Below, piece by piece: positions 10,716 to 58,142 of a DNA stretch of 64,000 nucleotides. The position numbers and the translations under genes were made by a program. This DNA comes from an uncultured bacterium (GTDB lineage: Bacteria; Patescibacteriota; Saccharimonadia; UBA4664; SCTI01). The stretch covers positions 68,555 through 132,554 of the forward strand of contig CAVRJJ010000001.1 of the NCBI GenBank assembly GCA_963721685.1, given 5' to 3'. Each line of letters starts with the position of its first letter. The stretch's first letter is position 1. The notes beneath the pieces are model-generated. The model made no database searches and was not told the origin of the DNA. It was given only the letters and a program-made list of their open reading frames with translations.

Positions 10716-10726
10716 AATATACACAT

Positions 10727-31006: not shown

Positions 31007-31030
31007 GCAGCCCGCCAGATGGCGGGCTGC
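31007..31030 (+). terminator. Perfect 10-bp hairpin GCAGCCCGCC-AGAT-GGCGGGCTGC at the 3' end of the upstream operon and the edge of GC-rich islet A
   Basis: Read directly. Only a weak T tract follows (TAGGTTTC), so it is a possible bidirectional terminator. Confidence 0.4.
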
Positions 31031-31287
31031 TAGGTTTCACGGACTATGTCACTCTCCCAAGCCCACACCGGCCATGCCGTGTTAATGTAGGGGTGAGGTG
31101 GCGGGTTGAGCGGCAGTAGCTTGTACCGCCACTCCAGGCGCTGATCGCCGTGCTCGTCGAGGGGACGCTTTTGTTCGCGCCGTTCAACAACAACACAGGT
31201 GAGTACAAGCTTCGGATCGGCGGGCGACCGAAAGGTCACTCGCGTGGTGCCGTCGGCGCTGTATATCGGTGGCGGGCGGCTGCCCAT
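31030..31287 (-). CDS. Hypothetical protein (85 aa) in GC-rich islet A, second gene of a minus-strand pair
   Basis: Strong SD AAGGAG 4 nt before the ATG (minus strand, 31287), 26 nt downstream of the previous stop. MGSRPPPIYSADGTTRVTFRSPADPKLVLTCVVVERREQ... The longer 173-aa ORF (to 31551) is the same frame but overlaps the other gene, so the SD-supported start is preferred. Confidence 0.45.
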   Translation of the reverse strand: MGSRPPPIYSADGTTRVTFRSPADPKLVLTCVVVERREQKRPLDEHGDQRLEWRYKLLPLNPPPHPYINTAWPVWAWESDIVRET

Positions 31288-31313
31288 AATGCTCCTTGTC
31301 TTGGAGGTGAATG

Positions 31314-31685
31314 CTACGAGATCATCACGGGCGATTCGCCTCGCTTGTGGTTGATTGCGTCGCGAATGGCTTCGAGTTCCTCGTGGTCGAGAACCGCGAA
31401 CGAAGCCCAACTGTCGGCTCCGACCTCGCGTCCGTTGATCAGGTAGCTCTGTCGACGAATCGGCATGCCCTGGTCGTCGTAGTCGACGGTTTCGATCCTC
31501 ACCGCGAACGTGGTCCGAGTACCGTTGGGACGGCGGTAAGGGACGCTGCACGAGTCAATTGCTGGCTTTGCAGCAGCGACGAGCCTCGTGATCAGATCCT
31601 TGGCCTCCACCATAGCGATGAGAGCTCGTGCTCGTCTGGAGGTTCTCCACTTCGATGCTGGCCTTTCTATGGTATTGCCCATCAT
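31314..31685 (-). CDS. Hypothetical protein (124 aa) encoded in GC-rich islet A
   Basis: Minus-strand ATGATG at 31685/31682 preceded by GAAAGTAGGACC (SD-like). The sequence MMGNTIERPASKWRTSRRARALIAMVEAKDL...LDHEELEAIRDAINHKRG matches no family I recognise. GC content is about 60% or more. Confidence 0.45.
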   Translation of the reverse strand: MMGNTIERPASKWRTSRRARALIAMVEAKDLITRLVAAAKPAIDSCSVPYRRPNGTRTTFAVRIETVDYDDQGMPIRRQSYLINGREVGADSWASFAVLDHEELEAIRDAINHKRGESPVMIS

Positions 31686-31822
31686 TGGTGGTCCTACTTT
31701 CGGGTTGTGTGTTAAGAAACCGTTGCTTATATATACCACAAATTGCTTAAAGTTTCAAGTGTTTCCATAATTACGCTAACGCTTGGGCGTGGTATACTAA
31801 GTGAATCGAAAAGGGGGCCTGT

Positions 31823-34800
31823 TTGAGCGAGGATACAGCCGCGACGCTGAAAGCGAACGCGTCAAAATCAAAGTTTGTTCACCTGCATAATCACAGCCAC
31901 TATAGTTTGCTGGACGGCTTGCAAAAGGTTCCTCAAATGCTCGACCAAGCCGCCAAACTCGGTATGGACGCGATTGCCCTTACCGACCACGGAACCCTTT
32001 CCGGAGCGGTGGAGTTTTATAACGTTGCCAAGCAAAAAGGCATTAAACCAATTATCGGGCTTGAGGCCTATGTTTCCCCAAGACGGATGCATGAAAAAAC
32101 TGGCAAAATTGACGCTAACCCCTTCCATTTGATTTTGCTAGCAAAAAATTACGAAGGTTACCAAAACTTAATGCGGATTTCAACCGAAGCGCATTTAAAC
32201 GGCTTTTATTACAAGCCGCGTATCGACCGGCAGCTATTGGAGCTCCACCACGAAGGAATAATTGCCCTGAGCGGCTGTGCTTCTGGAGAGGTTGGGCGCT
32301 CTATCTTAAATGGCGCGATGAAGGAAGCCAGAGAAACGGTGGAGTGGTATAGCGCTACCTTCGGTAACGGCAATTATTATCTTGAACTACAGGATCACGA
32401 GGAGTGGGAGCCGCAAGTTCGGATTAACAAAGGGTTGATTCAGCTCAGTAAAGAAACTGGGGTGCCCTTGGTGGTAACCGCTGACTCGCACTATACCTGT
32501 AAAGATGACCGTGAGGCTCATGAAATCCTGTTGTGCGTTCAAACCGGCAAGACCATTGGAGATACCGATCGCATGGAAATGGATATGGCGCTCTATGTTT
32601 CTAGCCCGGATGACGTTTTAGACCGCTGGAAGCATCTGCCGGAGGCTCTGGAAAACTCGGTAAAAATTGCTAATGCCTGTGACATGGAGCTGCCGCTCGA
32701 CCAAATCTTAATACCCACGTTCTCCACGCCCAAAGGTGAAACCGAGCATGATTATTTGCGTAAACTATGTTGGCAAGGCGCGATGTGGCGTTATGGCGAT
32801 ATTGCCCACGAAGACATGCATCTTCAAACAGAAGATAAAGCCCATAAAGAATTGAGCACGGAGGTGGTTGAACGGCTAGAGTATGAGCTGGGTGTTATTA
32901 GCAAAATGGGGTATGAAGGGTATTTCCTGATTGTGGCCGATTTCATTAACTGGGGTAAGAACCAGGGCATTATTTTTGGTCCGGGGCGGGGAAGCGCCGC
33001 CGGTTCGATTGTGGCCTATGTTATGAATGTGACCGACCTTGATCCCTTAAAATACGATTTGCTGTTTGAGCGGTTTCTCAATCCCGACCGTATTAGCATG
33101 CCGGATATCGATATTGATATCCAGGACACCCGACGGGGGGAGGTAATTGATTATGTTACCGAAAAGTACGGCCAAGACCGGGTGGCCCAAATTATTACCT
33201 TTGGCACCATGGCTGCCCGCAACGCCGTGCGTGACACGGGGAGGGCTTTGGGCATGAGCTACGCCGAAGTTGACGCGATTGCCAAAAAGATTCCCCAGCC
33301 GGTACAGGGGCGCCACATTCCATTGGCAAGCTCTATTAAGGATGACCCCGAACTACGCGGCGAGTATCGGGATAATCCACGGGCTAAAAACCTGATTGAT
33401 GTCGCTATGAAGCTTGAGGGCACTATCCGCTCCAACGGGGTGCACGCTGCCGGGGTAGTGATCGCGGCTGATGATATTGTGAAGTTTACCCCGCTGCAGC
33501 GCGCCCAAAAGGGCGGTATTTGCACACAGTATTCCATGGGGCCGATTGAGCAGCTGGGACTGCTTAAAATGGATTTCTTGGGCCTTTCAAACCTTACGAT
33601 TATTAAGAACACCCTGCGGATTGTGAAGCGGGTCTATGGTAAGGAAATCGATATCGCCGACATTCCCTTAAATGATACTAAAACCTATGAGCTGTTTGCC
33701 CGCGGCGATACCACCGGCCTGTTCCAGTTCGAGTCGGCCGGTATGAAGCGGTACTTGCGCGGACTTAAGCCGACACGGTTTGATGACTTGGTAGCGATGA
33801 ACGCGCTCTACCGGCCTGGCCCGATGCAGTGGATTGAAGATTTTATCGACCGCAAGCATGGCCGCAAGAAAGTGGAATACCTTCATCCCACCATGCAAAC
33901 AGCGCTTGAGCCAACTTACGGAATTATTGTCTATCAAGAGCAGGTAATGCAAATTTCTAAGGAAATGTGTGGTTTTACCGGTGGCCAAGCCGATAGCTTG
34001 CGCAAAGCAGTTGCTAAAAAGAAGCCGGCCGAAATGGCAAAGATGAAAAAAGATTTTATTGATGGCGCCATTAACACATCTAGGGCTGACCGTAAAACGA
34101 TGGAAGACTTTTGGACCCAGCTGGAAGCTTTTGCCGCCTATGCCTTTCCCAAATCCCACTCCGCGTGTTACGCGCTTATAGCGGTACAAACCGCCTATCT
34201 GAAAGCCAACTACCCCAGCGCCTTCATGGCTGCCTTGATGACATCAAACTATGATAATATCGATAAAATTTCACTTGAGATTTCCGAGTGCCGCCGCATG
34301 GGTATTAATGTGTTATCGCCGGATATTAACGAAAGTTTCTTGGAATTTGGCATTGTACCCGACTCTAAAGATATCCGCTTTGGGCTAGCCGCCATTAAAA
34401 ACGTCGGCACGGGCGCGATTAATACCATTTTAGCGGCTCGGGAAGTTGGCGGTCCGTATAAGGATGTTGAGGATTTTGCCAAACGGGTTTCCGCCAGCGA
34501 GTGCAACCGCAAGGTATGGGAGGCTTTAATTAAGTCGGGCGCGATGGATAGCTTTGGCGAACGCTCCCAGCTGCTGCACAATCTGGATAGCATCACCAGC
34601 TACGCCTCAAAAGCCCAAAAGAACGCCCTTTCCGGCCAAATCGATATATTCGGGTCGCTCGGGGAAGATAGCATGCCAGGTTTGCGGCTTGAACTGCCCG
34701 ACCGGGTAATCCCGGCGCGGGAGCAGCTGGGTTGGGAACGTGAACTGCTAGGGTTGTTTCTGTCCCAACATCCGCTGGATGATTATGAGGGCTATTTGGC

Positions 34801-35404
34801 CGATAACACGGTGCCGATTGCCACTATAACCACGCAGCACGAAGGCCGCGCGGCCAAAATTGGGGGCACTATTACCACCGTCCGTAAAATCACTACCAAG
34901 AAAAACGACATGATGGCCTTTGTGGGGCTAGAAGATAAAACCGGCACGCTTGAATTGATTGTATTTCCTAAGGCCTACGAAAAATCTCCCGGGCTATGGG
35001 AGGTCGACAATGTCATTGAGGTAAATGGCAAAATCAACACCAAAGACCGTGAGGGCCGCCAAGACGGTGAGATAAAAGTTATGGTTGATGACGCCAGCAT
35101 GATTGATTACGACAAAGCTAAAAGTCATAAACGTATCAAACCACTTCCGGTAAAACCGCCTACCGAGGATGAAGTTGTCGCGGCAGAAGCCGACCCGTTA
35201 ACGATCCGCCTCCAGTCAATTGCAAATACGACTATCTTAACTGAGATAAAGCAACTGCTTGAGTCCAGCCCCGGGGCTAACCCGGTTAATTTAGTGATGC
35301 CCGGCAATCCCCCAAAGACGATCCGATTGCCGTTTACGGTAACTATTACACCTGAACTGAACCTACAACTACAAGAGGTTGTTAAGGCCGCAGCTCAAAC
35401 CTAG
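31823..35404 (+). CDS. dnaE: DNA polymerase III alpha subunit DnaE (TTG start)
   Basis: PHP domain (HLHNHSHYSLLDG), polymerase core (GPGRGSAAGS, PDIDIDI), and a C-terminal OB fold. 1193 aa. Confidence 0.95.
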   Translation: MSEDTAATLKANASKSKFVHLHNHSHYSLLDGLQKVPQMLDQAAKLGMDAIALTDHGTLSGAVEFYNVAKQKGIKPIIGLEAYVSPRRMHEKTGKIDANPFHLILLAKNYEGYQNLMRISTEAHLNGFYYKPRIDRQLLELHHEGIIALSGCASGEVGRSILNGAMKEARETVEWYSATFGNGNYYLELQDHEEWEPQVRINKGLIQLSKETGVPLVVTADSHYTCKDDREAHEILLCVQTGKTIGDTDRMEMDMALYVSSPDDVLDRWKHLPEALENSVKIANACDMELPLDQILIPTFSTPKGETEHDYLRKLCWQGAMWRYGDIAHEDMHLQTEDKAHKELSTEVVERLEYELGVISKMGYEGYFLIVADFINWGKNQGIIFGPGRGSAAGSIVAYVMNVTDLDPLKYDLLFERFLNPDRISMPDIDIDIQDTRRGEVIDYVTEKYGQDRVAQIITFGTMAARNAVRDTGRALGMSYAEVDAIAKKIPQPVQGRHIPLASSIKDDPELRGEYRDNPRAKNLIDVAMKLEGTIRSNGVHAAGVVIAADDIVKFTPLQRAQKGGICTQYSMGPIEQLGLLKMDFLGLSNLTIIKNTLRIVKRVYGKEIDIADIPLNDTKTYELFARGDTTGLFQFESAGMKRYLRGLKPTRFDDLVAMNALYRPGPMQWIEDFIDRKHGRKKVEYLHPTMQTALEPTYGIIVYQEQVMQISKEMCGFTGGQADSLRKAVAKKKPAEMAKMKKDFIDGAINTSRADRKTMEDFWTQLEAFAAYAFPKSHSACYALIAVQTAYLKANYPSAFMAALMTSNYDNIDKISLEISECRRMGINVLSPDINESFLEFGIVPDSKDIRFGLAAIKNVGTGAINTILAAREVGGPYKDVEDFAKRVSASECNRKVWEALIKSGAMDSFGERSQLLHNLDSITSYASKAQKNALSGQIDIFGSLGEDSMPGLRLELPDRVIPAREQLGWERELLGLFLSQHPLDDYEGYLADNTVPIATITTQHEGRAAKIGGTITTVRKITTKKNDMMAFVGLEDKTGTLELIVFPKAYEKSPGLWEVDNVIEVNGKINTKDREGRQDGEIKVMVDDASMIDYDKAKSHKRIKPLPVKPPTEDEVVAAEADPLTIRLQSIANTTILTEIKQLLESSPGANPVNLVMPGNPPKTIRLPFTVTITPELNLQLQEVVKAAAQT

Positions 35405-35482
35405 TTTCCCGTTAATGGGAATGTAATTATTACAAATCATGGTATAGTATCTTTGCTTCAGCAAACCGACCGAAGGACAACC

Positions 35483-35743
35483 ATGGAAGACCCTTACCAG
35501 GTTCTAGGTGTTCCTGCATCGGCAAGCGAGGAGGACATCAAAAGAGCGTACCGTGTACTCGCGCGGCTGCATCACCCGGACCAAAATCCAGGGAGGGGTG
35601 ACACCGACTTTAAGGCGGCTACCGCGGCCTATGAAGAGCTGAGCGATCCCGAAAAGCGACGCCAGTATGACGCAAAACAAAATCGTCCTGATTTCGCGGA
35701 GATGGTTGGCCGTTATTTCGACGCCTTTTTCTCCGCGAGGTAA
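35483..35743 (+). CDS. Stand-alone J-domain (DnaJ-like) protein
   Basis: DPYQVLGV...EEDIKRAYRVLARLHHPDQN...AYEELSD: J-domain with HPD tripeptide. SD GAAGGA 6 nt upstream of the ATG at 35483. Confidence 0.7.
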   Translation: MEDPYQVLGVPASASEEDIKRAYRVLARLHHPDQNPGRGDTDFKAATAAYEELSDPEKRRQYDAKQNRPDFAEMVGRYFDAFFSAR

Positions 35744-35791
35744 CCAGTTTCTGCACAAAGGCAAACCCACGAAACGAAAGTAGGTGGACAA

Positions 35792-35932
35792 GTGCGATGC
35801 AAGTTCCGGTTCTGGCTGCAGGAAGAGCGCGGAGATGCTGGCACGGTGATGATGGTCGTGCTGTTTCTGGTGATCCTGGCGCTGGTGGTCCTCGGGTTCC
35901 TCTTCCTCCCACCCCTGCCTCATGCGGGTTGA
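35792..35932 (+). CDS. Small hydrophobic peptide (46 aa from GTG; 27 aa if ATG at 35849) in GC-rich islet B
   Basis: SD AGGTGG 4 nt before the GTG. Encodes ...MMVVLFLVILALVVLGFLFLPPLPHAG, a single TM helix. The stop TGA is 1 nt before the next ATG. Confidence 0.4.
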   Translation: MRCKFRFWLQEERGDAGTVMMVVLFLVILALVVLGFLFLPPLPHAG

Positions 35933-35933
35933 C

Positions 35934-36062
35934 ATGTCGAGGTTCAGGCGCGGGAAGGTACGCAGTCTCATCTTCGACGTAGTCGTTGCGCTGTTGTTGC
36001 TCGCAGGGCTCATCGCCTTCTGCGTGGCGATGGCGTACTTCGACCGCAACCCGATATGGTGA
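35934..36062 (+). CDS. Small membrane peptide (42 aa) translationally coupled to the previous peptide
   Basis: MSRFRRGKVRSLIFDVVVALLLLAGLIAFCVAMAYFDRNPIW: basic N-terminus plus one TM helix. GC-rich codons (CTG/GCG/CGC). Confidence 0.4.
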   Translation: MSRFRRGKVRSLIFDVVVALLLLAGLIAFCVAMAYFDRNPIW

Positions 36063-36187
36063 AGCCGAAGCTGGCTCACCAGTGCCTTCTCCGGGCGCTA
36101 CTCTGTCAATCGACCGAGAGCGCTTTGGAGGGGGCGTTCTTAGTTATTATTGATCTGCCCATCAGATTATGCTACATTACTTGGGTT

Positions 36188-36820
36188 ATGCATCCAGCAA
36201 TCACCCAGCTTGAATCTACCCATCGCAAAACCGCTGTCGCCAAAGTCCAGTCCGGCGATACCGTGCGTGTGCACCAGCGCATTCGTGAGGGCGCCAAACA
36301 GCGGATCCAGATTTTTGAAGGCGTGGTGATCCGTACCCATCGGCTGGATAGCCTTTCCGCTACCGTTACTGTGCGCCGGATTGCCAGCGGTGTCGGCGTT
36401 GAAAAAACCTATTTATTGCACTCCCCTAATATCGATAAGGTTGAAATTTTGCGCCGTGCCAAAGTGCGCCGCAACTTTCTAAGTTATCTGCGCGGCCGGC
36501 GCGGCAAATCTGCCCGGCTCCAAGAGATGGGCTTTGATAAAGCGGCCGCTAACGCTTCCGATAACAGTCTCTTGGTCCCAGGAGATGATGCCCCCGGTAC
36601 CGCCGCCGCCGCCGCGGTAACAGAAATTGAAGCTGATGAAAACCAGGATGAGCTAAACCAGACTGACGTTTCGTTGGATGAGGTAATCAAGGAAGAGAAC
36701 AAAGCAGCCGGGGCTGATGATGCCAGCCCGAGTGATGGCGGCACCGACGCCGGAGACGAATCGGAAATGGAGCGCGAGGAAGCCGAGCAAAAGATTGATA
36801 AACCCGGCAAAGACAGCTAA
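36188..36820 (+). CDS. rplS: 50S ribosomal protein L19 with an acidic C-terminal extension of about 95 aa
   Basis: MHPAITQLESTHRK...VQSGDTVRVH...QIFEGVVIRT...RRIASGVGVEKTYLLHSPNI...RRAKVRRNFLSYLRGRRGKSARLQE aligns with L19. The tail ...DENQDELNQTD...DESEMEREEAEQ is extra. The upstream ATG at 36056 is unlikely to be the start. Confidence 0.85.
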   Translation: MHPAITQLESTHRKTAVAKVQSGDTVRVHQRIREGAKQRIQIFEGVVIRTHRLDSLSATVTVRRIASGVGVEKTYLLHSPNIDKVEILRRAKVRRNFLSYLRGRRGKSARLQEMGFDKAAANASDNSLLVPGDDAPGTAAAAAVTEIEADENQDELNQTDVSLDEVIKEENKAAGADDASPSDGGTDAGDESEMEREEAEQKIDKPGKDS

Positions 36821-36835
36821 TTTACTTATTAACTT

Positions 36836-37850: not shown

Positions 37851-37868
37851 TGCGTTATACTAGGTACG

Positions 37869-39674
37869 ATGCAACCAATCAACACCTCCAAAACCACCTG
37901 GGACCTCTCGTCATTACTGGCTGAAGACAATGACCCCAAAATTATCGAATACCGTAAAGGGCTTAGCGCCGCTACCTCGGCTTTTGCCAACAAATGGCGT
38001 GAACGAACCGATTATCTCAAACAACCACCAGTACTGCTTAAAGCGCTCAACGAGTTCAATGAGCTGGAAAGCCTTAGGGCTAATGGCCGGGAGTACTATT
38101 ACTTTGGTTTGCGTTCCAGTGTGGATGCTATCGACCCGAATTTAAAGGCTAGGGAAAACCAGGCTATTGAGTTCTTGCAGGATATTTCCAACCAGCTGCA
38201 GTTCTTTTGGTTAAAGGTGGGTAATATTGATGAAAAGCTGCAGCCGGCTTTTTTGGATGATAAGGGTCTTTTGCCCTACCGCCACTGGATGGAGCAACAG
38301 TTTCGCTCGGCCAAGCACCGTTTAAGTGAAGCCGAAGAAAAAATTATGATGCTTAAATCCACCCCCGCCCATTCATTATGGGTGCAAATGACAAGCGATA
38401 TGTTGGCAAAGGATGAGCGGGAGGTGCTAACCGAAGACGGCAAAATCAAAAAGGCCACTGAAGAGGAGGTGCTTTCACTGTTAACCAGTAAGCAAAAACC
38501 GGTGCGCGACAAGGCCGCTAAAGCCATGAATGAAATGTTAGACGACCACGCCGACGTGGCCGTTACAGAACTTAATGCCATACTAAGCAATAAAAAAATT
38601 GACGACTCTCTGCGCGGATATGAACGTGCCGACAGTGCGCGCCACCATGCCGACGACATTGACAGTGAAGTGGTTGACGCGCTCATTGCCGCCGTATCAG
38701 ACCGCTACGACATTGCCCACCGTTACTATCAGTTGCGCGCTAAGCTAGTTGGCTTACCGAAGCTTGCCTACCACGAAAAAACCATTGAGTTTGGATCGGA
38801 CGATGTTGAGTATAAATACCCCAAAGCATCTCAGCTAGTTCATGACGTATTCACAAACCTTGATCCTGAGTTCGCCAATATCTACGCCTCATTTATGGAA
38901 AATGGCCAGATTGACGCCTTCCCCCGCAAAGGTAAACGCGGTGGGGCTTTTTGCGCTCATCACGGCATAACCCATCCTACTTATGTAATGCTGAACCATA
39001 CCGATAAACTACGGGACGTAATGACGATTGCCCATGAGATGGGTCACGCAATTAACAACGAACTGATCCGCAAAACCCAAAACGCCTTGAACTTTGGCAC
39101 GCCCATGGCCACGGCGGAAGTGGCCAGCACGTTTATGGAAGACTTTGTGGTGGAACGGCTCTTAAAGGAGGCGGATGATGAAACTGAGCTGTCACTTCGA
39201 ATTCGCCAACTCGATGACACTATTGCTACCATTTTCCGTCAAATCGCGTTTTACCGTTTCGAGCAAGAGCTGCACGCAGCGTTCCGTAAACAAGGCTACT
39301 TATCGCAAGACGAAATTGGAACCATCTTTGTAACGCATATTGACGCGTATTTGGGTCCGGTTTTCAACGGATCCACGGATGCGGCCAATTGGTGGATGTA
39401 TGTACCGCACTTTCGGTCATTCTTTTATGTCTATTCGTATGCCAGCGGATTACTGATTTCCAAAGCCATGCAGGCAAAGGTGCGTTCGGATAAAAGCTTT
39501 ATGGCTGAAGTTAAAACATTTCTGTCAGCCGGTTTGTCTAAGTCGCCCCAAGACATTTTTGCTGCCATGAAGATTGATATTACGGATAAGGGTTTTTGGA
39601 AAAACGGGTTAGAGGAAATAGACCGGCTATTGGCTGATACTGAAAAGCTGGCAAAGAAACTTGGTAAGGTTTAA
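37869..39674 (+). CDS. pepF: Oligoendopeptidase F (M3B family)
   Basis: HEMGHAI (HExxH) zinc motif with a downstream E. About 600 aa and the M3 architecture. Confidence 0.85.
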   Translation: MQPINTSKTTWDLSSLLAEDNDPKIIEYRKGLSAATSAFANKWRERTDYLKQPPVLLKALNEFNELESLRANGREYYYFGLRSSVDAIDPNLKARENQAIEFLQDISNQLQFFWLKVGNIDEKLQPAFLDDKGLLPYRHWMEQQFRSAKHRLSEAEEKIMMLKSTPAHSLWVQMTSDMLAKDEREVLTEDGKIKKATEEEVLSLLTSKQKPVRDKAAKAMNEMLDDHADVAVTELNAILSNKKIDDSLRGYERADSARHHADDIDSEVVDALIAAVSDRYDIAHRYYQLRAKLVGLPKLAYHEKTIEFGSDDVEYKYPKASQLVHDVFTNLDPEFANIYASFMENGQIDAFPRKGKRGGAFCAHHGITHPTYVMLNHTDKLRDVMTIAHEMGHAINNELIRKTQNALNFGTPMATAEVASTFMEDFVVERLLKEADDETELSLRIRQLDDTIATIFRQIAFYRFEQELHAAFRKQGYLSQDEIGTIFVTHIDAYLGPVFNGSTDAANWWMYVPHFRSFFYVYSYASGLLISKAMQAKVRSDKSFMAEVKTFLSAGLSKSPQDIFAAMKIDITDKGFWKNGLEEIDRLLADTEKLAKKLGKV

Positions 39675-39792
39675 ATAATTGCAGGCGGGTCCGCCACCAC
39701 CCCGAGGGGCGGCGGCGGGAGGCCGTTCATACACGCATTACTGCCCGGACAGGCAATTACGGTCGCTCGGAAGCGGCATTAATTGCGTCCTT

Positions 39793-40095
39793 TTAACGCT
39801 GTTTGATGGGGACCACGGTGCCGGGCGGGCGCCGATCCCGCTCGTCTTCGAGGGTCGAGAACACCTTGGCCAAGGCCAGGAAGTTCCGTCCCTTTTTTGT
39901 GAGCGAAAGGACCAGCACGGAGGCGATGAGGATCATCAGCGTACCGAGGATCCAGACCGCTCCACTTGAGCTGCCTAGAAGAGCGACCCCCAGGACCGCC
40001 ATTGCCGCGCTCGCGACGGTGATGAGACGACGGCGTCGACGGCTTCTGGCACTCTGGATACGGCGCTGATGCAGTTCTGTGGCTGTAAGGGGCAT
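39793..40095 (-). CDS. Hypothetical small membrane protein (100 aa, Arg-rich N-terminus plus two TM helices) in GC-rich islet C
   Basis: The minus-strand ATG at 40095 is preceded by AAGGGA. MPLTATELHQRRIQSARSRRRRRLITVASAAMAVLGVALLG...ILGTLMILIASVLVLSL... About 65% GC. Confidence 0.45.
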   Translation of the reverse strand: MPLTATELHQRRIQSARSRRRRRLITVASAAMAVLGVALLGSSSGAVWILGTLMILIASVLVLSLTKKGRNFLALAKVFSTLEDERDRRPPGTVVPIKQR

Positions 40096-40357
40096 GTGTT
40101 CCCTTTGTTCGATGGACGCAGTGTGTGAATGGCGCGACTTGATGCAGCAAACTCAGAAACTGGGTAAACCTACTTCAAAGTCAGAAAGAACAATAGCATA
40201 AAACTTCATAAAAGTCAATAGATTGGCACTAGCGCTATTTACGGCAACGAAGAGTTGCAAATTCGCGGTTCATTTGCAATAATGCCTCCATAACGTCGGC
40301 CTGCTGGTCGACTTTTTTTGAACTACAACTTAATAACAACAGAATAGGAAAGATCAT

Positions 40358-44384: not shown

Positions 44385-45410
44385 ATGCAGCTTTTTCGCC
44401 GACTTACCAAGCAATATCCATCATTTCGAATATACGGGCTAACAATACTGGTTAGTCTGATTGCCTGTTTTGCGGTTGGATTTAAGCTGGGCCTGGCGGC
44501 TTTTATTACGACGGTTATACTGGCCGTTTTGGAAATAAGCCTGAGTTTTGATAATGCCGTAGTAAACGCCAAAGTACTTAAAACGATGTCACCGTTTTGG
44601 CGTAAAATCTTTCTGACGGTAGGAATATTGATAGCGGTGGTTGGGGTACGGTTGTTACTTCCGGTTTTGCTCGTCGTGATTTTTGCCCACACCGGTTTCA
44701 GTCAAGTTGTCCACTTGGCGCTTTATGATCCTGAAAAGTATGGAGAAATGCTTCACCACATTCATCCGGAGATTGCCGGCTTCGGCGGCATTTTCCTCCT
44801 CTTGTTGTTCCTTGATTACATCCTAGGCGAACGTAAAATTTTATGGCTTCGCCATCTTGAACTTCCGCTCATCAAGCTGGGCCGGTTTAAGCGGCTCGAT
44901 GTAGTGGTCGCCCTGCTGGCACTGTTAGGTGCGGTGAGCTTTGTAGGTGAGGAGCATAAAACCAGTATGCTCGTCTCAGGCATTGTGGGCGCGGTTATAT
45001 ATATTGTCATCAAGTCGGTTAGCGACTTTTTTGAAAATAGCAGTTCTATGCAAAATGTTGCGAAGTCGGGGTTGATCGGGTTTATATACCTGGAAGTGCT
45101 AGACGCCAGTTTCAGTCTTGACGGGGTACTGGGGGCTTTTGCGATTACCAGCAGTATTGTGGTAATTATGGTTGGTTTAGGGATTGGCGCACTATGGGTA
45201 CGGAGCATGACCATACATTTGGTTGAAACCGATACATTGGCACGATTCCGCTACTTAGAGCATGGTGCCCATTACGCGATCGGGGTACTGGCAGTGCTTT
45301 TACTCGTCAGTGCCAGCCAGGAAATATCCGAACTGATTACAGGCTTATTAGGGTTTGGTATTATTATCGCTGCTTTGACCGACTCAATCCGGTTTAACCG
45401 ACAGTCTTAG
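44385..45410 (+). CDS. TerC-family integral membrane protein
   Basis: EISLSFDNAVVNA motif (the TerC 'LSxDNxxV' pattern) and about 8 TM helices. Confidence 0.65.
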   Translation: MQLFRRLTKQYPSFRIYGLTILVSLIACFAVGFKLGLAAFITTVILAVLEISLSFDNAVVNAKVLKTMSPFWRKIFLTVGILIAVVGVRLLLPVLLVVIFAHTGFSQVVHLALYDPEKYGEMLHHIHPEIAGFGGIFLLLLFLDYILGERKILWLRHLELPLIKLGRFKRLDVVVALLALLGAVSFVGEEHKTSMLVSGIVGAVIYIVIKSVSDFFENSSSMQNVAKSGLIGFIYLEVLDASFSLDGVLGAFAITSSIVVIMVGLGIGALWVRSMTIHLVETDTLARFRYLEHGAHYAIGVLAVLLLVSASQEISELITGLLGFGIIIAALTDSIRFNRQS

Positions 45411-46003
45411 CCTTTTACGATTTGCTTCTTCTTGATTAAGGTGTTGCGTTGTTTTTTGGCGGTATTTAATGATTGGGTAACCTTTTGGCCGGCTACGGTA
45501 ACGGTTTTTCGCTGGGCGTGGATAGCGGTTTTTGCAGGTTTAATTTCTTTCTTTAAAGCATCTAAGGTTTTAGCTCTTTCAATGTCAGTGCAGTTGTCAG
45601 GCCCCACATTTGAAAACTTGGCAATATAATTGATGTACGTATTTTCAAGAGCTTCGGTTTTACCAATATACACGCTCAGGGCCGCGTCAACCGGCCCCAA
45701 ATTAACGGGGTGCTGGCTCTTATTGGTTTTGCTGACGTAGCTGGCATAATTATCACGTCGTTTATTCCATTCACGCAGCTTATGGTTATATGACTCTTGG
45801 AGACCCCCGTCATATCCGGCAGGTCGGGTTTTCCCGTAAAACTCCCGCTCTAAACGGGTTGCTTCCTTCTTTATCTGAGCAATTTTATTACTACATTTCT
45901 GTAAATCATGCGGTTTTACTAGCGGATCGGCGGCGCTCGCTGACCCGGCTCCAAGTAAGACGCTGCTTAATGCTAAAACGGCTGCAAATTTATAAATTTT
46001 CAT
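45407..46003 (-). CDS. Secreted hypothetical protein with signal peptide
   Basis: MKIYKFAAVLALSSVLLGAGSASA signal peptide, then a Lys-rich helical mature region. No family recognised. Confidence 0.45.
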   Translation of the reverse strand: MKIYKFAAVLALSSVLLGAGSASAADPLVKPHDLQKCSNKIAQIKKEATRLEREFYGKTRPAGYDGGLQESYNHKLREWNKRRDNYASYVSKTNKSQHPVNLGPVDAALSVYIGKTEALENTYINYIAKFSNVGPDNCTDIERAKTLDALKKEIKPAKTAIHAQRKTVTVAGQKVTQSLNTAKKQRNTLIKKKQIVKG

Positions 46004-47485: not shown

Positions 47486-47507
47486 AAGTTAAGAAAGTAT
47501 TATATTT

Positions 47508-52658: not shown

Positions 52659-52660
52659 CC

Positions 52661-54700
52661 GTGATAAATCTTGATGTGCGGGTTGAAACCCTTAAAGGTG
52701 TTGGTGTGGCAATGGCAATTAAGCTGGAGCGGCTTGGCATCTTAACTGTTGGTGATTTAATTAATCACTACCCTAGGCGCTACGTCGACTTTTCGCAAAT
52801 TATTCCCATCCGCTCCATGAAGCCAGGGCTGGTGACCTTTAAGGGAAGCGTAGAGCGAATTGCCAGCCGCCGGGTTCGCGGGCGCAAGCTGCAGCTAACC
52901 GAAGCCATCATCAGCGACGGCACCGGCACCGTAAAGGCCATATGGTTCAATCAGTCTTTTCTTGCCACGCAGTATCCCGCCGGAACCGAGGTGTTTGTGG
53001 CGGGAAAAGTTGAATTTCGCAATAGCGACCTCGCGCTGCAAAGCCCGGCAATTGAAAAAGCCGAGGTCGGCAATCGACACACCGGCAGGATTGTGCCGGT
53101 ATATCCGGAAACCGAAGGTTTAAGTTCTCGCCAATTGCGTAATATTATTGCCCCCCTGTTATCGCGGCTTGATGGTTTACCCGAAACCCTGCCAGACAGT
53201 ATTATGGCCGAGGCTAAGCTGATGTCGCGCAGTCAGGCATTGGCTGAGATTCATACACCCACTACGGCCAGTAGTTTACAACGGGCACGCCACCGGATGG
53301 CTTTTGAAGAGTTGTTTTATATTATAGGAGCCAGTTTGACAATTCGGAAAGAAACCAAAACCGAGTCGGCGCAACCAATTAGTTTAAAGGTTGAGGTTGC
53401 CCAGGCTTTTACCAAAGCTCTAGACTTTGAGCTCACCAACGCCCAGCGCGCGGCGGCCTGGCAAATTTTACAAGACATGCAGGATGTAACACCCATGAAC
53501 CGCTTGCTGGAAGGTGACGTGGGTAGTGGAAAGACAGTTGTGGCTTTGCTGGCTGCTGTCATGGTAATGGCATCCGGCCATCAGGCGGTTTTGATGGTGC
53601 CAACCGATATCCTAGCCCGGCAACATGCCGCCACTATTGAGCCGCTATTAGCAAAGCTTGGTTATTCTACAAGTCTGGTATTGGCGCGCCATCCAGCCTC
53701 GATGAAGCAAGCGGCGGAGACTGCAATTAAAAGGGGAAGCGCGCAATTTGTAATTGGTACCCACGCGCTGCTAAGCGAACGTATTCAATTTGCCAGGTTG
53801 GGTCTCGTAATTGTCGACGAACAGCATCGCTTTGGCGTTGAGCAACGACAACTGTTGAAGAAAAAAGCCGGTCGTTTGCCTCATTTGCTAAGCATGACCG
53901 CGACCCCGATTCCCCGCAGCCTGGCTCTAACCGTCTATGGGGACTTGGACATTTCGTTGATAGATGGGTTGCCGCCGCATCGGCAACCCATTGCTACGCG
54001 CATCCTGAAACCACAGGATCGCACGGCGGCTTACGGTTTTATTGACACGGAAATCGCAAAAGGGCGCCAAGCTTTTGTGGTCTGCCCATTAATTGAAGAC
54101 TCGGATACACTAGGAACTAAGAGTGTAACCGCTGAAGCTGAGCGGTTACAGGCCGGGGCGTTTAAGCATCGGCGCATCGGGGTGGTGCACGGCAAGCAAA
54201 AGCCCGGGGAGCGCGACGAGGTTATGCGGTTATTGGTAGAAGGTAACCTTGATATCCTTGTGGCCACCAGCGTAATTGAAGTTGGAATTGATATTCCTAA
54301 CGCCAGTATTATGCTGATTGAAGGGGCGGAACGGTTTGGTTTAGCAGCCCTGCACCAATTGCGCGGCCGGGTTGGGCGCGGCGAGCACCATTCATACTGT
54401 TTTATTGCCAGTGACTCTAGCGCCCCCGGTGTCATGCAACGCTTGCAGGCTCTGGAAAGAACGAATGACGGTTTTCGGTTGGCGCAAATCGACTTGGAGC
54501 TGCGCGGCCCCGGACAAGTCTACGGACGCCGCCAGCACGGCATGCTTGAGCTGCAAATGGCCGACTTAGGGGATACGCGCTTGATCGCCGCGGTGCGCAA
54601 GGCGGCTGAACGGTTTGTGGGCGATCCTGAGGCCATGCTACAATACCCTCAAGTTATGGCACGAGTTAACAGGTTGAAAAGCCTGACCTCGTTAGACTAA
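52661..54700 (+). CDS. recG: ATP-dependent DNA helicase RecG (GTG start)
   Basis: Wedge/OB domain, Walker A GDVGSGKT, DEQHRFGV (DEAH box variant), TATPIPRS and a helicase C-terminal domain. Confidence 0.9.
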   Translation: MINLDVRVETLKGVGVAMAIKLERLGILTVGDLINHYPRRYVDFSQIIPIRSMKPGLVTFKGSVERIASRRVRGRKLQLTEAIISDGTGTVKAIWFNQSFLATQYPAGTEVFVAGKVEFRNSDLALQSPAIEKAEVGNRHTGRIVPVYPETEGLSSRQLRNIIAPLLSRLDGLPETLPDSIMAEAKLMSRSQALAEIHTPTTASSLQRARHRMAFEELFYIIGASLTIRKETKTESAQPISLKVEVAQAFTKALDFELTNAQRAAAWQILQDMQDVTPMNRLLEGDVGSGKTVVALLAAVMVMASGHQAVLMVPTDILARQHAATIEPLLAKLGYSTSLVLARHPASMKQAAETAIKRGSAQFVIGTHALLSERIQFARLGLVIVDEQHRFGVEQRQLLKKKAGRLPHLLSMTATPIPRSLALTVYGDLDISLIDGLPPHRQPIATRILKPQDRTAAYGFIDTEIAKGRQAFVVCPLIEDSDTLGTKSVTAEAERLQAGAFKHRRIGVVHGKQKPGERDEVMRLLVEGNLDILVATSVIEVGIDIPNASIMLIEGAERFGLAALHQLRGRVGRGEHHSYCFIASDSSAPGVMQRLQALERTNDGFRLAQIDLELRGPGQVYGRRQHGMLELQMADLGDTRLIAAVRKAAERFVGDPEAMLQYPQVMARVNRLKSLTSLD

Positions 54701-54725
54701 ATCAAGCAAGGAGACCACGAGTTTC

Positions 54726-55562
54726 ATGTACTCAGGCTTTATTACGTCAAAACGGATCGTCCCGGCGGTCGGGGTGCATCAGCGTTTTGATGTTGCGGCA
54801 TATCGTATGATCGCTTCGTATTTTGCGGAGGATACGTTTCCGTCGTTAAAGCAACTTATGCATTTTGAGGGGATGAACGGTCCGGATGGCTTGAAGGTTA
54901 AATCGCCAGGGCATCATGAGCCCGGCCATCTCTATAACCCTGAAACCGGAGGAGGTGACATCCCTCGCCTAATAACCGACCATTATCGCCAATTAGTTGA
55001 GTCCCTGCGTACCAAAGATTTGGTACGGGCCGGTTTCGACGCCGCCTGGCTGGCGCACTATATTTGTGATGGTTTAACCCCGGCCCACCATTTTCCGCTT
55101 GACGCAGACATGGCAAAACAGTCAGAACATTCAAAGCGCATTCCCAGACGCTATAAATACACGGTGATTGTTCCCGGCATAAATGTTATTGATACTATCC
55201 GGCGCAGCTGGGCAATTTGGGGCGGCAAGGGACTGCTTACCACCCACTTTAATTTTGAGGTTGGGGTAGCGGCTGCCTTGGTGGGCTTTCGCTTAAAGGC
55301 CCCCCTCGATCATGATCGCTTAGCCAAGGCGCGTAGCTCGGGGCTTCTGCCGTTTTTTACGGAGGAAGCAAAGTCGGTCGCAACGCTTGAGATGTATGAA
55401 ACATTTTATCTCTCGGGTTGGAACGCAGAGCTTGCCCAGATGGTTAAGCATCGTTTAGCACCTCAGATTACCCAAACCATCGCCATTGCCTGGCTGCTTG
55501 CCTATTTGGAGGCGGGCCTTGAGTCAGCTAAATTGGCCCAACAAAAGACGAAAAAGCGCTAA
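54726..55562 (+). CDS. Zinc-dependent phospholipase C / P1-nuclease-superfamily-like protein (tentative)
   Basis: LAHYICDGLTPAHH resembles the PLC zinc-ligand motif (L-H-Y-x-G-D-x-x-x-P-x-H). The rest is not recognised. Confidence 0.35.
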   Translation: MYSGFITSKRIVPAVGVHQRFDVAAYRMIASYFAEDTFPSLKQLMHFEGMNGPDGLKVKSPGHHEPGHLYNPETGGGDIPRLITDHYRQLVESLRTKDLVRAGFDAAWLAHYICDGLTPAHHFPLDADMAKQSEHSKRIPRRYKYTVIVPGINVIDTIRRSWAIWGGKGLLTTHFNFEVGVAAALVGFRLKAPLDHDRLAKARSSGLLPFFTEEAKSVATLEMYETFYLSGWNAELAQMVKHRLAPQITQTIAIAWLLAYLEAGLESAKLAQQKTKKR

Positions 55563-56098
55563 TGCGCGTTGTATCTGGTGTTTATGGCGGCCGAATTATC
55601 GCGGCACCCAAGCATGCGGGCACTCGCCCGATGACCGATAAGGTCCGTGCAGCCTTATTTGATGGGCTCGGTGCTATTGCTAATGCCAGTGTGTTAGATG
55701 TCTATGCCGGGAGTGGTGCCATTGGTTTTGAGGCGTTAAGCCGGGGGGCGAGCGACGTCCAAGCGATTGAGCAGGCGCGGTCGGCAATTAAAACTATTCA
55801 AGCAAACCAGGCGGCGCTAGGACTTAGCTGGGGCTATACGCTTCATCAAATGACAGCGGAGGCTTGGCTAGCCCATCCAACCGACCAGCTCTTTGACCTT
55901 ATCGTAGCCGACCCGCCATATGAGCGGATTAAGCCCGATATTTTAGAAAAACTGGGCACGCTGCTTAAATCTGAAGGGATTATGGTTGTGTCCCATAGTT
56001 CTCGCCTAGGTGGATTTGACCTTGAGGGCCTTGTTCAGGAGGGAACTAAGGTCTACGGGGACACCCAACTTAGCTCCTACCACGTTACCAGGCGCTAG
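55562..56098 (+). CDS. rsmD: 16S rRNA (guanine966-N2)-methyltransferase RsmD
   Basis: VLDVYAGSGAIGFEALSRGA (SAM binding) and the DPPY motif (IVADPPY). Confidence 0.8.
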   Translation: MRVVSGVYGGRIIAAPKHAGTRPMTDKVRAALFDGLGAIANASVLDVYAGSGAIGFEALSRGASDVQAIEQARSAIKTIQANQAALGLSWGYTLHQMTAEAWLAHPTDQLFDLIVADPPYERIKPDILEKLGTLLKSEGIMVVSHSSRLGGFDLEGLVQEGTKVYGDTQLSSYHVTRR

Positions 56099-56150
56099 GA
56101 CGGGCGCTTAAAGTACGCTAGTATAATGTACGTCCCTCAAAGCCAAGCGC

Positions 56151-56237
56151 GGGCGAGTGGTGAAATGGTAGACACGCCAGCCTTAGGAGCTGGTAGGGGA
56201 AACCCTGTGGAGGTTCAAGTCCTCTCTCGCCCACCAA
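56151..56237 (+). tRNA. tRNA-Leu (anticodon TAG)
   Basis: GGGCGAG acceptor, anticodon stem CCAGC/GCTGG, loop CTTAGGA, long variable arm, T-loop GGTTCAAGTCC, encoded CCA. Confidence 0.85.
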
Positions 56238-56252
56238 AAAAAGGTCAAATTC

Positions 56253-56915
56253 TTAGGCTTTTTCAAATATACTGTCTTCGAGGGCAGTCACAGTTGCAAG
56301 AATATAATCAAGCTCTTCGACGGTAATTGTGGTAGGTGAGTTATGCCTTATGTCTAGCGCAATAGTTCTCGCTAATTCTCTTGCCCGAGCAACCTGATCG
56401 CTCAAATCTTGATCATTGTTTTCCGTGGGCGTAGAACCTTCTACAGAGTCAAATAAAACTTCCTTCATTCTTTCCACGCACAACCTCGCTACATCAAGAA
56501 GGTCTTGGGTAATGTTTTCAGGCGCTTTTTCAAGTGTTTCATCAATTTCTTTTAAAATGCCCGCGGCGGTTTCGCTGACCCATCCCGCTTTTCCATTTAT
56601 TTCACGAATTCTAACGCGTTCGGCCTGACGCGCGGCTTCAGCTTCTCTAACCTTAAGCTCATGCAGAGCAAGTTCTTCGGCAGTGAGCGGCTTGGTGTTC
56701 ATTAGGATCTTTTGGGCTGGGGTTGGTTCCTCACCTACTACGTGATGTCCGCCAATTGATCCGTTTGCAAGCGGAACACTAGGTTCATCGTCTGGGTGGG
56801 CATCAATGCCTGGATCAGCTCCCAGCTCATCTAACTCCTCGTTTGTAAGCAGTTCGGGTGGGTTCTTCCTTATTTCATGATCAGAAGGCCCGCCTCTTCC
56901 TCTTTCGATATCCAT
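56253..56915 (-). CDS. Hypothetical acidic protein (220 aa)
   Basis: Minus-strand ORF rich in Glu/Asp and predicted coiled coil. No recognisable family. Confidence 0.4.
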   Translation of the reverse strand: MDIERGRGGPSDHEIRKNPPELLTNEELDELGADPGIDAHPDDEPSVPLANGSIGGHHVVGEEPTPAQKILMNTKPLTAEELALHELKVREAEAARQAERVRIREINGKAGWVSETAAGILKEIDETLEKAPENITQDLLDVARLCVERMKEVLFDSVEGSTPTENNDQDLSDQVARARELARTIALDIRHNSPTTITVEELDYILATVTALEDSIFEKA

Positions 56916-56990
56916 AGAAATATCCTCATCTATAAATTTAATGCTAGCACAACCAATGCTATAATAACCATAAGCCTAATAAAAACCCTT

Positions 56991-57551
56991 ATGGATATTC
57001 AATACCCTAAACCAAAACCCCGCTCAAAGGTTGCAAAAATCAAATTCCTCAAGCGGTCAGCTGCCGGCAAAGCCAGTCATCACAAACGGCGAATTCGCGC
57101 GCACGCAAAGCGTAATTTGATACTCGCTGCGTTACTACTGGTAGTGGGGCTGGGACTTAGCTCAACCTATATTTTACGCTCGCTCGAGCTCATGGCGCCC
57201 GCCGGTAATGATCCGCACCTCCAAACCTACATCCGTGCAGCCCAAGCCGCTTCCTACCAGCAACGGGAAAGCTCAAAAGCGCCCGATCAAATTGGCGTGG
57301 CGTCGTGGTATGCATTAGGATTGCGCAGCCCGGACGCCTTAACCTGCGCCTCAACGAAATTTCCGCGCGGAACGTATCTGCATGTTAAAGACTTACGTAA
57401 TGGGAGGGAGGTGGTCTGTTTGGTTAACGACTACGGCCCCACACCCGGTACGAAGCGGGTTATTGACCTTTCGCGGGGCAGCTATAGTCACCTGGAAGGC
57501 CTGGGGTCGGGAACGATGCCGGTTGAGATACGGCGGGTGGAAAAGCCATAA
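56991..57551 (+). CDS. RlpA-like double-psi beta-barrel (DPBB) protein, membrane-anchored
   Basis: TM anchor then VASWYALGLRSPDALTCASTKFPRGTYLHVKDLRNGREVVCLVNDYGP (the RlpA/expansin DPBB signature). The start at 56991 avoids overlap with the minus-strand gene. Confidence 0.7.
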   Translation: MDIQYPKPKPRSKVAKIKFLKRSAAGKASHHKRRIRAHAKRNLILAALLLVVGLGLSSTYILRSLELMAPAGNDPHLQTYIRAAQAASYQQRESSKAPDQIGVASWYALGLRSPDALTCASTKFPRGTYLHVKDLRNGREVVCLVNDYGPTPGTKRVIDLSRGSYSHLEGLGSGTMPVEIRRVEKP

Positions 57552-57559
57552 CCGGTGTA

Positions 57560-57588
57560 TTGTAATTTACATATAAATATGTTATTAT
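57560..57588 (+). promoter_or_regulatory. Sigma-70-type promoter (TTGTAA-17 nt-TATTAT) immediately upstream of GC-rich islet D
   Basis: -35 at 57560-65 and -10 at 57583-88 in an AT-rich tract. The GC-rich ORF starts 64 nt downstream. Confidence 0.4.
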
Positions 57589-57651
57589 ATTGCAGTTCGA
57601 GGTGAACTTTTTCGCCTTGGGCTCAGTCCCACTCAACTACCGGGGGTACCT

Positions 57652-58083
57652 ATGGGAAAAGCATCGGCTCTTGACCAACGCGGATCCAACTGGGAGATCA
57701 CGAACGGAGGCCTCACGCTGGTCCTCAACGACTGCTTCGTGTTCACACGTAGCCCACGCCTTCGTGGGGTAGGCAACACCAAGGGCTCAGTTCTGAGCAG
57801 GCTCAACGCCCAGCTGCACGCGCTCATCGCGCGCGGCATGTGGGGGCAGGTTGACTTCATGCTCGGATCAAGCCAGCTGGTAGCCCAGTTGTGGATGCGC
57901 TGGGACCTCCAGTCGCGCCATCTGCAGGTAAGTGAAACCGTCCGTCTTCCGGGCCACCCGGTTCCGCTTGTCTGCGTGCGTTTCGAGCAGTTGGCCGAAC
58001 CGGGCTGTTTGCTCCTCGCTCCGGGAGTCGGGCAAGGTGATGAGCTCGCGTTCATCAACTCCCTGGGCTACCGCATCAGCTGA
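57652..58083 (+). CDS. Hypothetical protein (143 aa) in GC-rich islet D
   Basis: MGKASALDQRGSNWEITNGGLTLVLNDCFVF...AQLWMRWDLQSRHLQ...GDELAFINSLGYRIS. About 60% or more GC with CTG/GGC/CGC-biased codons. No family recognised. Confidence 0.45.
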   Translation: MGKASALDQRGSNWEITNGGLTLVLNDCFVFTRSPRLRGVGNTKGSVLSRLNAQLHALIARGMWGQVDFMLGSSQLVAQLWMRWDLQSRHLQVSETVRLPGHPVPLVCVRFEQLAEPGCLLLAPGVGQGDELAFINSLGYRIS

Positions 58084-58142
58084 GCTTCGGCTCGAGTGGG
58101 ACAACGGGGGAGGCAAGCGCCTCTCCCGTCCACTGCACTTAT

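Follow-up and report, generated by a model that had tools for sequence, protein, structure and literature searches.

Four GC-rich islets of predicted orphan small genes between core genes of a Saccharimonadia genome

Hotspots of horizontal gene transfer (HGT), or genomic islets, are intervals between core genes that hold variable, lineage-specific genes and that differ in content between related genomes. Many hotspots are reported to be without mobility genes, and Oliveira et al. in 2017 is said to be an example of the comparative-genomics literature on them. Bacterial ORFans, i.e., open reading frames (ORFs) without homologues, are reportedly short and AT-rich, as Daubin and Ochman are said to have described in 2004. 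Here we describe four small GC-rich inserts, numbered 1 to 4, that lie between genes in 64,000 nucleotides of contig CAVRJJ010000001.1 from an uncultured bacterium of the Saccharimonadia; this whole 64-kb stretch is termed the window. The inserts resemble hotspot islets in that variable, lineage-specific genes lie between core genes and the content of the same interval differs in relatives. They are unlike them in consisting of 1-2 genes in 0.3-0.8 kb, in encoding orphan small proteins exclusively and in having a GC content above that of the host genome.

The Saccharibacteria in culture, which live on Actinobacteria, show natural competence; their transformation is ComEC-dependent, and cassettes were stably inserted in intergenic positions between convergent ORFs (PMC10633639). 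Inserts 1 and 4 of the window occupy the same type of site. However, the experimental cassettes were provided with homology arms of 0.5-1 kb, whereas the natural inserts lack homology. Most of the transfers detected in Patescibacteria took place among Patescibacteria, and they include genomic islands as well as individually transferred genes, with competence proposed as the route (PMC12455944). Transfers in that study were detected by donor homology and island predictors, whereas no donor could be detected for the window islets, which are also much smaller than predicted islands usually are.

The islets were lineage-specific, the same sites were found to hold different small genes in close relatives, and no mobile-element features were found in them. 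The window has an overall GC content of 49.7%, with a standard deviation of 0.052 among 300-bp windows, and contains a run of housekeeping genes comprising gatA/gatB, an MscS-like protein, YtxH, DUF5665, dnaE, rplS, rnhB, yraN, pepF, nusA, clpC, radA, a class A penicillin-binding protein, tyrS, recG, rsmD, trigger factor and clpP. When one genome per species was scanned with DnaE, Saccharibacteria/Saccharimonadales alone matched, with a top identity of 81%. The E. coli genome gave no match to 12 kb of the window, so an enterobacterial origin was rejected. The exact proteins of the window are present in public collections (NCBI/ENA), each as a singleton cluster at 90% identity. Synteny was compared in about 90 relatives, whose loci are numbered from L001 onward. 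Within the subclade of the window (L001-L008, L013, L074, L081-L083 and L094-L096) gene order is conserved and GC content spans 43-61.5%; such a spread (0.43-0.615) inside one Saccharimonadales family is unusually fast compositional divergence for close relatives.

Insert 1 separates DUF5665 from dnaE. The distance between these genes is 841 bp in the window but does not exceed 198 bp in 34 of the 38 Saccharibacteria loci; dozens of relatives, among them L001, L074 and L002, have an empty site with a spacer of 56-141 bp only. Relatives without insert 1 still conserve the dnaE-proximal part of the spacer, with the dnaE promoter box located directly after DUF5665. The insert carries a two-gene minus-strand unit, 1a followed by 1b, that is divergent from dnaE. 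Counterparts of both genes were found between dnaE and DUF5665, as in the window, in L081 (Saccharimonadia metagenome-assembled genome, MAG, GCA_036379755.1, from another study), the nearest of the relatives that were recovered (GatB 82% and YtxH 83% identical). The 1b homologue of L081, P0009 (72 amino acids, aa, same position), was 43% identical over 77 columns in BLASTP and reached E 8e-5 in an exhaustive HMMER search with 1b against 1.84 billion representative proteins. Ahead of P0009 lies a 1a orthologue of 94 aa that is about 30% identical and shares the motif SVPYxRPNG. The G+C content at third codon positions (GC3) of the L081 orthologues is 0.75.

Core proteins are 74-89% identical between the window and L081, and synonymous sites of the core genes are saturated (proportion of synonymous differences, pS, 0.75-0.90). 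For 1a/1b the proportion of nonsynonymous differences (pN) of 0.35-0.50 lies below a pS of 0.69-0.76 (1b alone, pN 0.35 and pS 0.76), and the nonsynonymous distance (dN) is 0.47-0.83 for the islet proteins compared to 0.06-0.20 for neighboring genes. By these substitution measures, the 1a/1b unit truly codes for proteins, is subject to purifying selection and evolves 3-6 times faster than the genes next to it. Since the genes are orthologous despite the saturated synonymous sites of the core genes, insert 1 would already have been present in the common ancestor of the window genome and L081, and is old. The surroundings of the unit are conserved as well. The inverted repeat between the convergent 1b and DUF5665 genes is likely a bidirectional terminator, and its L081 counterpart is preserved via compensatory changes; the spacer that separates 1a from dnaE and a 136-bp spacer in L081 are about 70% identical when aligned. 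An AlphaFold2 (AF2) model of 1b had a predicted local distance difference test score (pLDDT) of 76 and formed a five-stranded small beta-barrel. Foldseek with this model gave generic SH3/chromo-barrel-like small barrels with a best E of 0.05, which is not significant and permits no functional inference.

Insert 2 is found between dnaE and rplS, which are 783 bp apart in the window and 14-119 bp apart in L001-L004, L008 and L013. The two genes are adjacent in L094/L095 too, and L094-L096 and L083 agree. A lineage-specific J-domain-only gene with host-like composition precedes the insert in the window; it is missing between dnaE and rplS in L001-L004, L008, L013, L083, L094 and L095, and no J-domain ORF was found near dnaE in any fetched locus. 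It is co-oriented with 2a and 2b, and the three may form one small operon. A terminator-like hairpin lies downstream of the tandem 2a/2b genes. The public annotation includes ORF 2a as a gene; its weak match to Flp1_like (E 9e-4) is under the family cut-off. ORF 2b is missing from the public gene calls and, as a predicted gene, has the least certain coding status of the six insert ORFs. The rplS (L19) ORF at 36056-36820 extends too far in the 5' direction; the alignment of relatives begins at MHPA..., which places the true ATG at 36188, and the overlap that the 2b stop seems to have with the start of rplS is an artifact of this over-extension. A conserved TTATGCTACAyT box is located about 15 nt upstream of the rplS ATG, with no obvious Shine-Dalgarno (SD) sequence, which suggests a very short leader.

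The site of insert 3, between pepF and nusA, shows a different pattern. The gap is at least 680 bp in every close relative and is filled with differing small ORFs. In L082, the closest relative at this site (pepF 85%, nusA 92% and clpC 96% identical; genome 50% GC), DNA homology to the window stops at the pepF stop codon and resumes about 170 bp before nusA, and the L082 block contains about 1170 bp of unrelated sequence. A small Arg-rich protein with 2-4 transmembrane (TM) helices is encoded at pepF-nusA in L002, L082, L083, L094, L095 and L096, and its strand, size and sequence vary. Clustering and shuffling detected no homology of these TM ORFs to ORF 3 or to one another (shuffle z-scores at most 2.4), except for a weak L094/L095 pair. 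Compared at this level, pepF-nusA appears as a hypervariable slot for small membrane proteins, where replacement rather than presence/absence is seen. The 153-aa ORF of L082 is probably a very recent arrival and is the best candidate for donor tracing. An assignment of ORF 3 to actinobacterial small membrane proteins was rejected, the scores for DUF3040 (13.4 bits, cut-off 24.7), an Rv2743c-type family (15.6 bits, cut-off 27.7) and PspM (14.7 bits, cut-off 80) all being under the curated cut-offs; these matches were driven by TM segments.

Insert 4 carries ORF 4, which is convergent with a flavin adenine dinucleotide (FAD)-binding oxidoreductase gene. A metagenome scan with the FAD-binding neighbor gave relatives that were at most 60% identical, with no synteny around insert 4, and a concatenated query of pepF and the FAD gene gave pepF matches only. 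An AF2 model of ORF 4 made without an alignment had a pLDDT of 39 and was uninformative. The nearest tRNA gene is a tRNA-Leu at 56151-56236, 1.4 kb away.

We determined GC boundaries by change-point fitting and local GC excess by a window-wide scan. Insert 2 has no GC segment of its own, the best fit being 35465-36787 (0.562), which includes the J-domain gene and rplS; because these neighbors are already at about 0.55, insert 2 is no anomaly in raw GC. The raw GC content of the inserts in 300-bp windows is about +2 to +2.8 standard deviations. About six further runs with GC of at least 0.59 lie inside ordinary genes, so that on raw GC alone the inserts are not unique. The GC3 of all six insert ORFs is 0.69-0.84, compared to 0.50 ± 0.075 with a maximum of 0.617 for 63 other ORFs, and the only non-core ORFs elsewhere in the window with GC3 of at least 0.62 were those of a tRNA overlap and of reading frames within a glycosyltransferase gene. 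Non-coding 3' spacers are also GC-rich (0.627 and 0.644). A candidate fifth GC-rich islet at 62.8-63.1 kb was rejected, since it sits within a long glycosyltransferase-like ORF. The top local GC spike (rank 1) is a proline tract at 19221-19470 (GC 0.68) in a surface-protein gene (18184-19974, minus strand). In its 596-aa product, which has no Pfam match, the very long poly-proline/PxP tract is accompanied by a TM helix at the N-terminus and a TM anchor at the C-terminus.

The inserts are real in the assembly and are not chimeras, as six of the eight insert junctions were reproduced on independent Logan contigs (run ERR12037361). One contig carries 1a, 1b, DUF5665 and YtxH together; another contains the dnaE end, the J-domain gene, 2a and the rplS start. 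For insert 3, a contig of 1597 bp holds nusA, ORF 3 and pepF with both junctions (pepF end and nusA start), and the contig for insert 4 contains transaldolase, the FAD gene and the C-terminal 86 codons of ORF 4, the FAD junction included. A tRNA scan of the inserts found none. No Rfam family reached its gathering score, the best match of a relaxed scan having E 0.087, which argues against a structured non-coding RNA family. SD-like motifs were read directly off the sequence.

An earlier note on this DNA had ascribed to all four inserts a GC content far above the local mean. This was borne out for inserts 1, 3 and 4 (61-64% vs 45-53% in the flanks) and was generous for insert 2. Its placing of them in intergenic positions between conserved core genes agrees with the synteny of inserts 1 and 2 but not with that of site 3, where no empty spacer was found and every close relative has other small ORFs. 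The note had also described 1-2 small ORFs with good SD sequences, several encoding membrane peptides, and this description held: 2a and 2b have one TM helix each and ORF 3 has two, with 1a, 1b and ORF 4 being soluble.

Features of the four inserts, their immediate surroundings and the pepF-nusA gaps of relatives; positions are those of the window, except for L082, where they are those of the L082 locus
Feature	Coordinates	Strand	Properties	GC composition
Insert 1	31000-31662		local GC-excess rank 3	change-point GC 0.611, flanks 0.48/0.47
Hairpin	31007..31030		perfect 11-bp inverted repeat between convergent 1b and DUF5665
ORF 1b	31030..31287	-	85 aa, soluble orphan; AAGGAG SD 5 nt ahead of ATG	GC3 0.70
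ORF 1a	31314..31685	-	123 aa, soluble orphan; AGGA SD-like motif	GC 0.586, GC3 0.69
Divergent promoter spacer	31686..31822		137 bp, between 1a and dnaE	AT-richer
J-domain-only gene	35483..35743	+	86 aa, HPD motif; Pfam DnaJ 7.7e-22	GC3 0.56, host-like
Insert 2	35780-36062		outside top 14 of local GC-excess scan	GC 0.60
ORF 2a	35792..35932	+	46 aa, GTG start, one TM (Kyte-Doolittle, KD, 3.4); AGGTGG SD-like motif	GC3 0.77
ORF 2b	35934..36062	+	42 aa, one TM (KD 2.95); ATG 1 nt past 2a stop	GC3 0.84
Variable block	39675..40185		DNA homology with L082 stops at pepF stop (39674), resumes about 40186
Insert 3	39681-40136		local GC-excess rank 2	change-point GC 0.625, flanks 0.46/0.45
ORF 3	39793..40095	-	100 aa, Arg-rich N-terminus then two TM helices; AGGGA SD-like motif	GC 0.62, GC3 0.71
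ORF 4	57652..58083	+	143 aa, soluble orphan; convergent with FAD-binding oxidoreductase gene	GC 0.618, GC1/2/3 0.65/0.46/0.74
Insert 4	57705-58136		local GC-excess rank 5	change-point GC 0.639, flanks 0.53/0.47
Spacer ORF 4-FAD gene	58084..58142		59 bp, terminator-like hairpin GGGGGAGGCAAGCGCCTCTCCC	GC 0.644
L082 Zn-ribbon-like ORF	2939-3163	+	74 aa, CxxC...CxxC	GC 0.64, GC3 0.73
L082 four-TM ORF	3378-3839	-	153 aa	GC 0.67, GC3 0.95
L083 pepF-nusA gap			two small TM ORFs	GC3 0.74-0.77
L002 pepF-nusA gap			93-aa TM ORF	GC3 0.82, genome GC 0.46
L094-L096 pepF-nusA gaps		opposite	132-155-aa two-TM ORFs	host-like GC

Homologues of the insert ORFs were sought in several ways. The exhaustive HMMER search was made with 1a, 1b and ORF 4 as queries and returned only their own entries and P0009, beyond two disregarded marginal matches. 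These were P0010 and P0011, large repetitive proteins with E of about 1e-4 to 7e-4 when 5-6 stretches are added up, which we judged to be composition/repeat artifacts. A word-indexed protein search with concatenated 1a, 1b and ORF 4 gave nothing at E of 0.01 or below, tblastn with 1a, 1b, ORF 4 and ORF 3 gave nothing in phages or plasmids, the insert ORFs of the relatives gave nothing in plasmids, and scans of IMG/VR with ORF 4 and the 153-aa ORF of L082 gave nothing. In Pfam, PHROG, PADLOC and NCBIfam the six insert ORFs had sub-threshold matches at most, and the ORFs of the relatives matched no family significantly. As far as the exhaustive search for 1a, 1b and ORF 4 and the family libraries for all six ORFs can tell, the insert ORFs are orphans confined to a narrow lineage, as ORFans are.

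When the four inserts were compared pairwise, only chance matches of 8-11 nt (E 0.35-27) and no protein similarity were found, and there were no copies of them elsewhere in the window. They have no terminal inverted repeats, target-site duplications or cassette-end (attC-type) inverted repeats; no flanking direct repeats were found, and no integrase or transposase domain was present among the scanned window genes. The 9-mer TAAATAATT is found at 30979-30987 and 39672-39680, where it spans or follows the DUF5665 and pepF stop codons at the left edges of inserts 1 and 3. Statistically its co-occurrence is at chance level (E 6.8), although the positions coincide.

We propose, with about an even chance of being right, that the four inserts are mutually independent islets whose small accessory orphan genes turn over at permissive intergenic sites and entered by uptake from higher-GC donors. 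Two types of site would be tolerated in the compact, syntenic gene order: between convergent genes beside a terminator (inserts 1 and 4), and between the end of a transcription unit and the next promoter (inserts 2 and 3). DNA may have been taken up via natural competence and then inserted by illegitimate or homology-anchored recombination. Entry from a GC-richer donor is plausible, and a GC-richer source is favored by the abrupt change of composition at the boundaries, by the high GC of non-coding 3' spacers and by the pattern of presence and absence. Candidate donors are relatives within the same family that have a high GC content (up to 61.5%), or phages of these relatives. Such donors would be likelier than an actinobacterial host, because the heavily sampled Actinobacteria give no match and because the same sites in GC-rich relatives carry compositionally similar small membrane genes. 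Since most of the products are small membrane or secreted proteins, they may act at the cell envelope, most likely in interaction with a host or competitor, or in immunity.

Several observations weigh against this proposal. No donor was identified for any insert ORF, so that horizontal origin is argued from composition and presence/absence only, and the presence/absence evidence covers inserts 1 and 2. Insert 2 stands out at codon position 3 and not clearly in raw GC. The coding status of 2a, 2b, ORF 3 and ORF 4 is deduced from codon-position composition, SD-like motifs and TM helices, not from conservation, and the function proposed for the islet proteins is a guess. Finally, insert 1 keeps a GC3 of 0.69-0.75 in both lineages despite the saturated synonymous sites of core genes. 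By our rough two-state decay estimate, a neutral relic of a donor should have decayed to about 0.5-0.6. Insert 1 thus calls for an extremely GC-rich donor, for re-import of alleles or for a force that keeps GC3 high.

Such a force is part of another explanation, in which the islets are resident, vertically inherited and fast-evolving small genes. Their high GC3 would be actively maintained by codon or mRNA selection or by GC-biased gene conversion where recombination is frequent, instead of tracing a foreign donor, and non-homology would reflect divergence past detection. We consider this unlikely, though with an appreciable chance. It accounts for the 1a/1b orthologues of L081 with their conserved flanking spacers and retained GC3, for the speed at which homology fades (1a compared to the core proteins) and for the occurrence of a small Arg-rich TM protein at pepF-nusA in every close relative. 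It does not account for the dozens of relatives in which site 1 is empty, or for site 3, where homology breaks abruptly at the pepF stop codon and gene number, size, TM count and strand differ among close relatives. Moreover, the ends of the flanking core genes lack the GC elevation expected from regional biased conversion, and the higher-GC relatives L094-L096 have host-like GC in their pepF-nusA ORFs. The earlier note had raised piecemeal uptake of DNA from high-GC bacteria by natural competence, with domestication of small genes. In its recent form, with a GC-rich host of this soil-type lineage, e.g., an actinobacterium, as donor, this would be a further explanation. The lifestyle and competence of cultivated Saccharibacteria (PMC10633639), the insert GC of about 0.60-0.64 and the GC3 of 0.95 of the L082 ORF, typical of very GC-rich genomes, are in line with this. 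We nevertheless find it quite improbable. The exhaustive and indexed searches gave no actinobacterial or other protein similarity, and none was found in plasmids or phages. Insert 1 is ancient, and at 90% identity each cluster has a single member. Random pieces of 0.3-0.7 kb of actinobacterial DNA would mostly be recognizable gene fragments, whereas the inserts consist of intact small genes that bring start signals and terminators of their own. What stands of the foreign-origin reading is the lineage-specific presence and foreign-looking composition at intergenic sites; recency and a host donor are not supported.

The same note had offered a family of miniature mobile cassettes, which could be MITE-like (miniature inverted-repeat transposable element), integron-cassette-like or similar. 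The similar sizes (0.3-0.7 kb), the intergenic location and TAAATAATT at two left edges are what such a family would explain, but inserts that share no sequence above chance, encode unrelated proteins, have no copies in the window and lack terminal repeats, target duplications, cassette-end repeats and a recombinase domain of the integrase or transposase type in the scanned genes leave it next to no chance. We also find it very unlikely that the inserts are assembly or binning chimeras, an artifact that the note had allowed for, or that they are non-coding GC-rich DNA, such as structured RNAs, with ORFs that result from rare stop codons. Long ORFs do occur on both strands of GC-rich DNA, 2b is uncalled publicly, and the structure of ORF 4 is of low confidence. 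Against this, six junctions came from an independent assembler and insert 1 was found in a different MAG from a different study; the inserts contain no tRNAs and no Rfam match at gathering score, their GC1/GC2/GC3 pattern is of the coding type, and 1a/1b are conserved at the protein level.

A bolder form of the uptake proposal can be formulated, which we regard as rather unlikely. A handful of conserved intergenic sites of the family would be reloadable slots that competence repeatedly refills with genes for small membrane proteins, the source being organisms of much higher GC, possibly bacterial hosts or their phages, or alternatively GC3 would be actively maintained against mutational bias. 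If the slots are real, GC-rich islets would preserve traces of earlier host contact that can still be read, and the small proteins would be adaptive tools of an epibiotic lifestyle. If instead GC3 is maintained, this would be a rare case of a gene-specific force on composition within a reduced genome.

To assess generality, 83 Saccharibacteria regions around dnaE were analyzed after masking of parts conserved between loci, which left 150 lineage-specific segments of at least 300 bp. Their mean GC difference was -0.014, and 5% of them exceeded +0.05. The strongest GC-positive segments were concentrated in the subclade of the window (L082, L013, L002, L074, L081, the window and L007), which suggests that GC-rich orphan islets typify this family and not the accessory DNA of Saccharibacteria generally.

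Other variable genes were observed in the window. A lineage-specific gene at 45407-46003 (minus strand) encodes 198 aa with a signal-peptide-like N-terminus and no family match; its GC content is low (0.44), i.e., of the opposite compositional sign, and it is missing in L082, where DUF475 and radA are separated by an 80-bp spacer. The adjacent DUF475/TerC gene (44385-45410), of ordinary composition, is present in the window and L082 and absent from L002 and L003. A 194-aa ORF at 27263-27847, between h146 and gatB, also has ordinary composition and is found in L001 (37% identity), not in L081, L074, L002 or L083. Directly after a tRNA cluster (Leu, Val, Phe and Gly; 10132-10802) lies a low-GC block at 10300-14900 (0.35-0.44, minimum 0.29) with AHSA1-like and alpha/beta-hydrolase genes and several small ORFs, which resembles a conventional AT-rich island beside tRNAs.

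If the pattern extends genome-wide, it would show where and how ultra-small syntenic genomes of the candidate phyla radiation (CPR) gain genes, namely as orphan islets of 1-2 genes at a few permissive spacers. The GC-rich composition and the persistently high GC3 of an old islet bear on the donors, and on the use of composition as a tracer of host association in uncultured epibionts. For the genetic engineering of Saccharibacteria the insert sites offer natural neutral sites, and among the islet products the small membrane proteins are candidate host-interaction factors.

Compared with known systems, the islets resemble bacterial ORFans in being short, without homologues, fast-evolving and patchily distributed. 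They differ in being GC-rich relative to their genome, whereas the 83 Saccharibacteria loci follow the usual slightly low GC. ORFs 2a and 2b are, like type I toxins, intergenic single-TM peptides of 42-46 aa. This is a resemblance only, as the peptide is the one feature visible, and unlike type I toxins they have no repeats or family match, show no visible antisense RNA and lie in tandem downstream of a J-domain gene. Unlike integron cassettes, the inserts are scattered singly, and the scanned window genes include no integrase domain. Measured against genomic islands and HGT hotspots, lineage-specific presence (inserts 1 and 2) and deviating composition were found, while mobility genes among those scanned, an attachment site, repeats and an identifiable donor were not. 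On present evidence the inserts are hotspot islets of orphan genes, a type of feature already known, which formed by ordinary turnover of accessory genes and have an atypical GC-rich composition.

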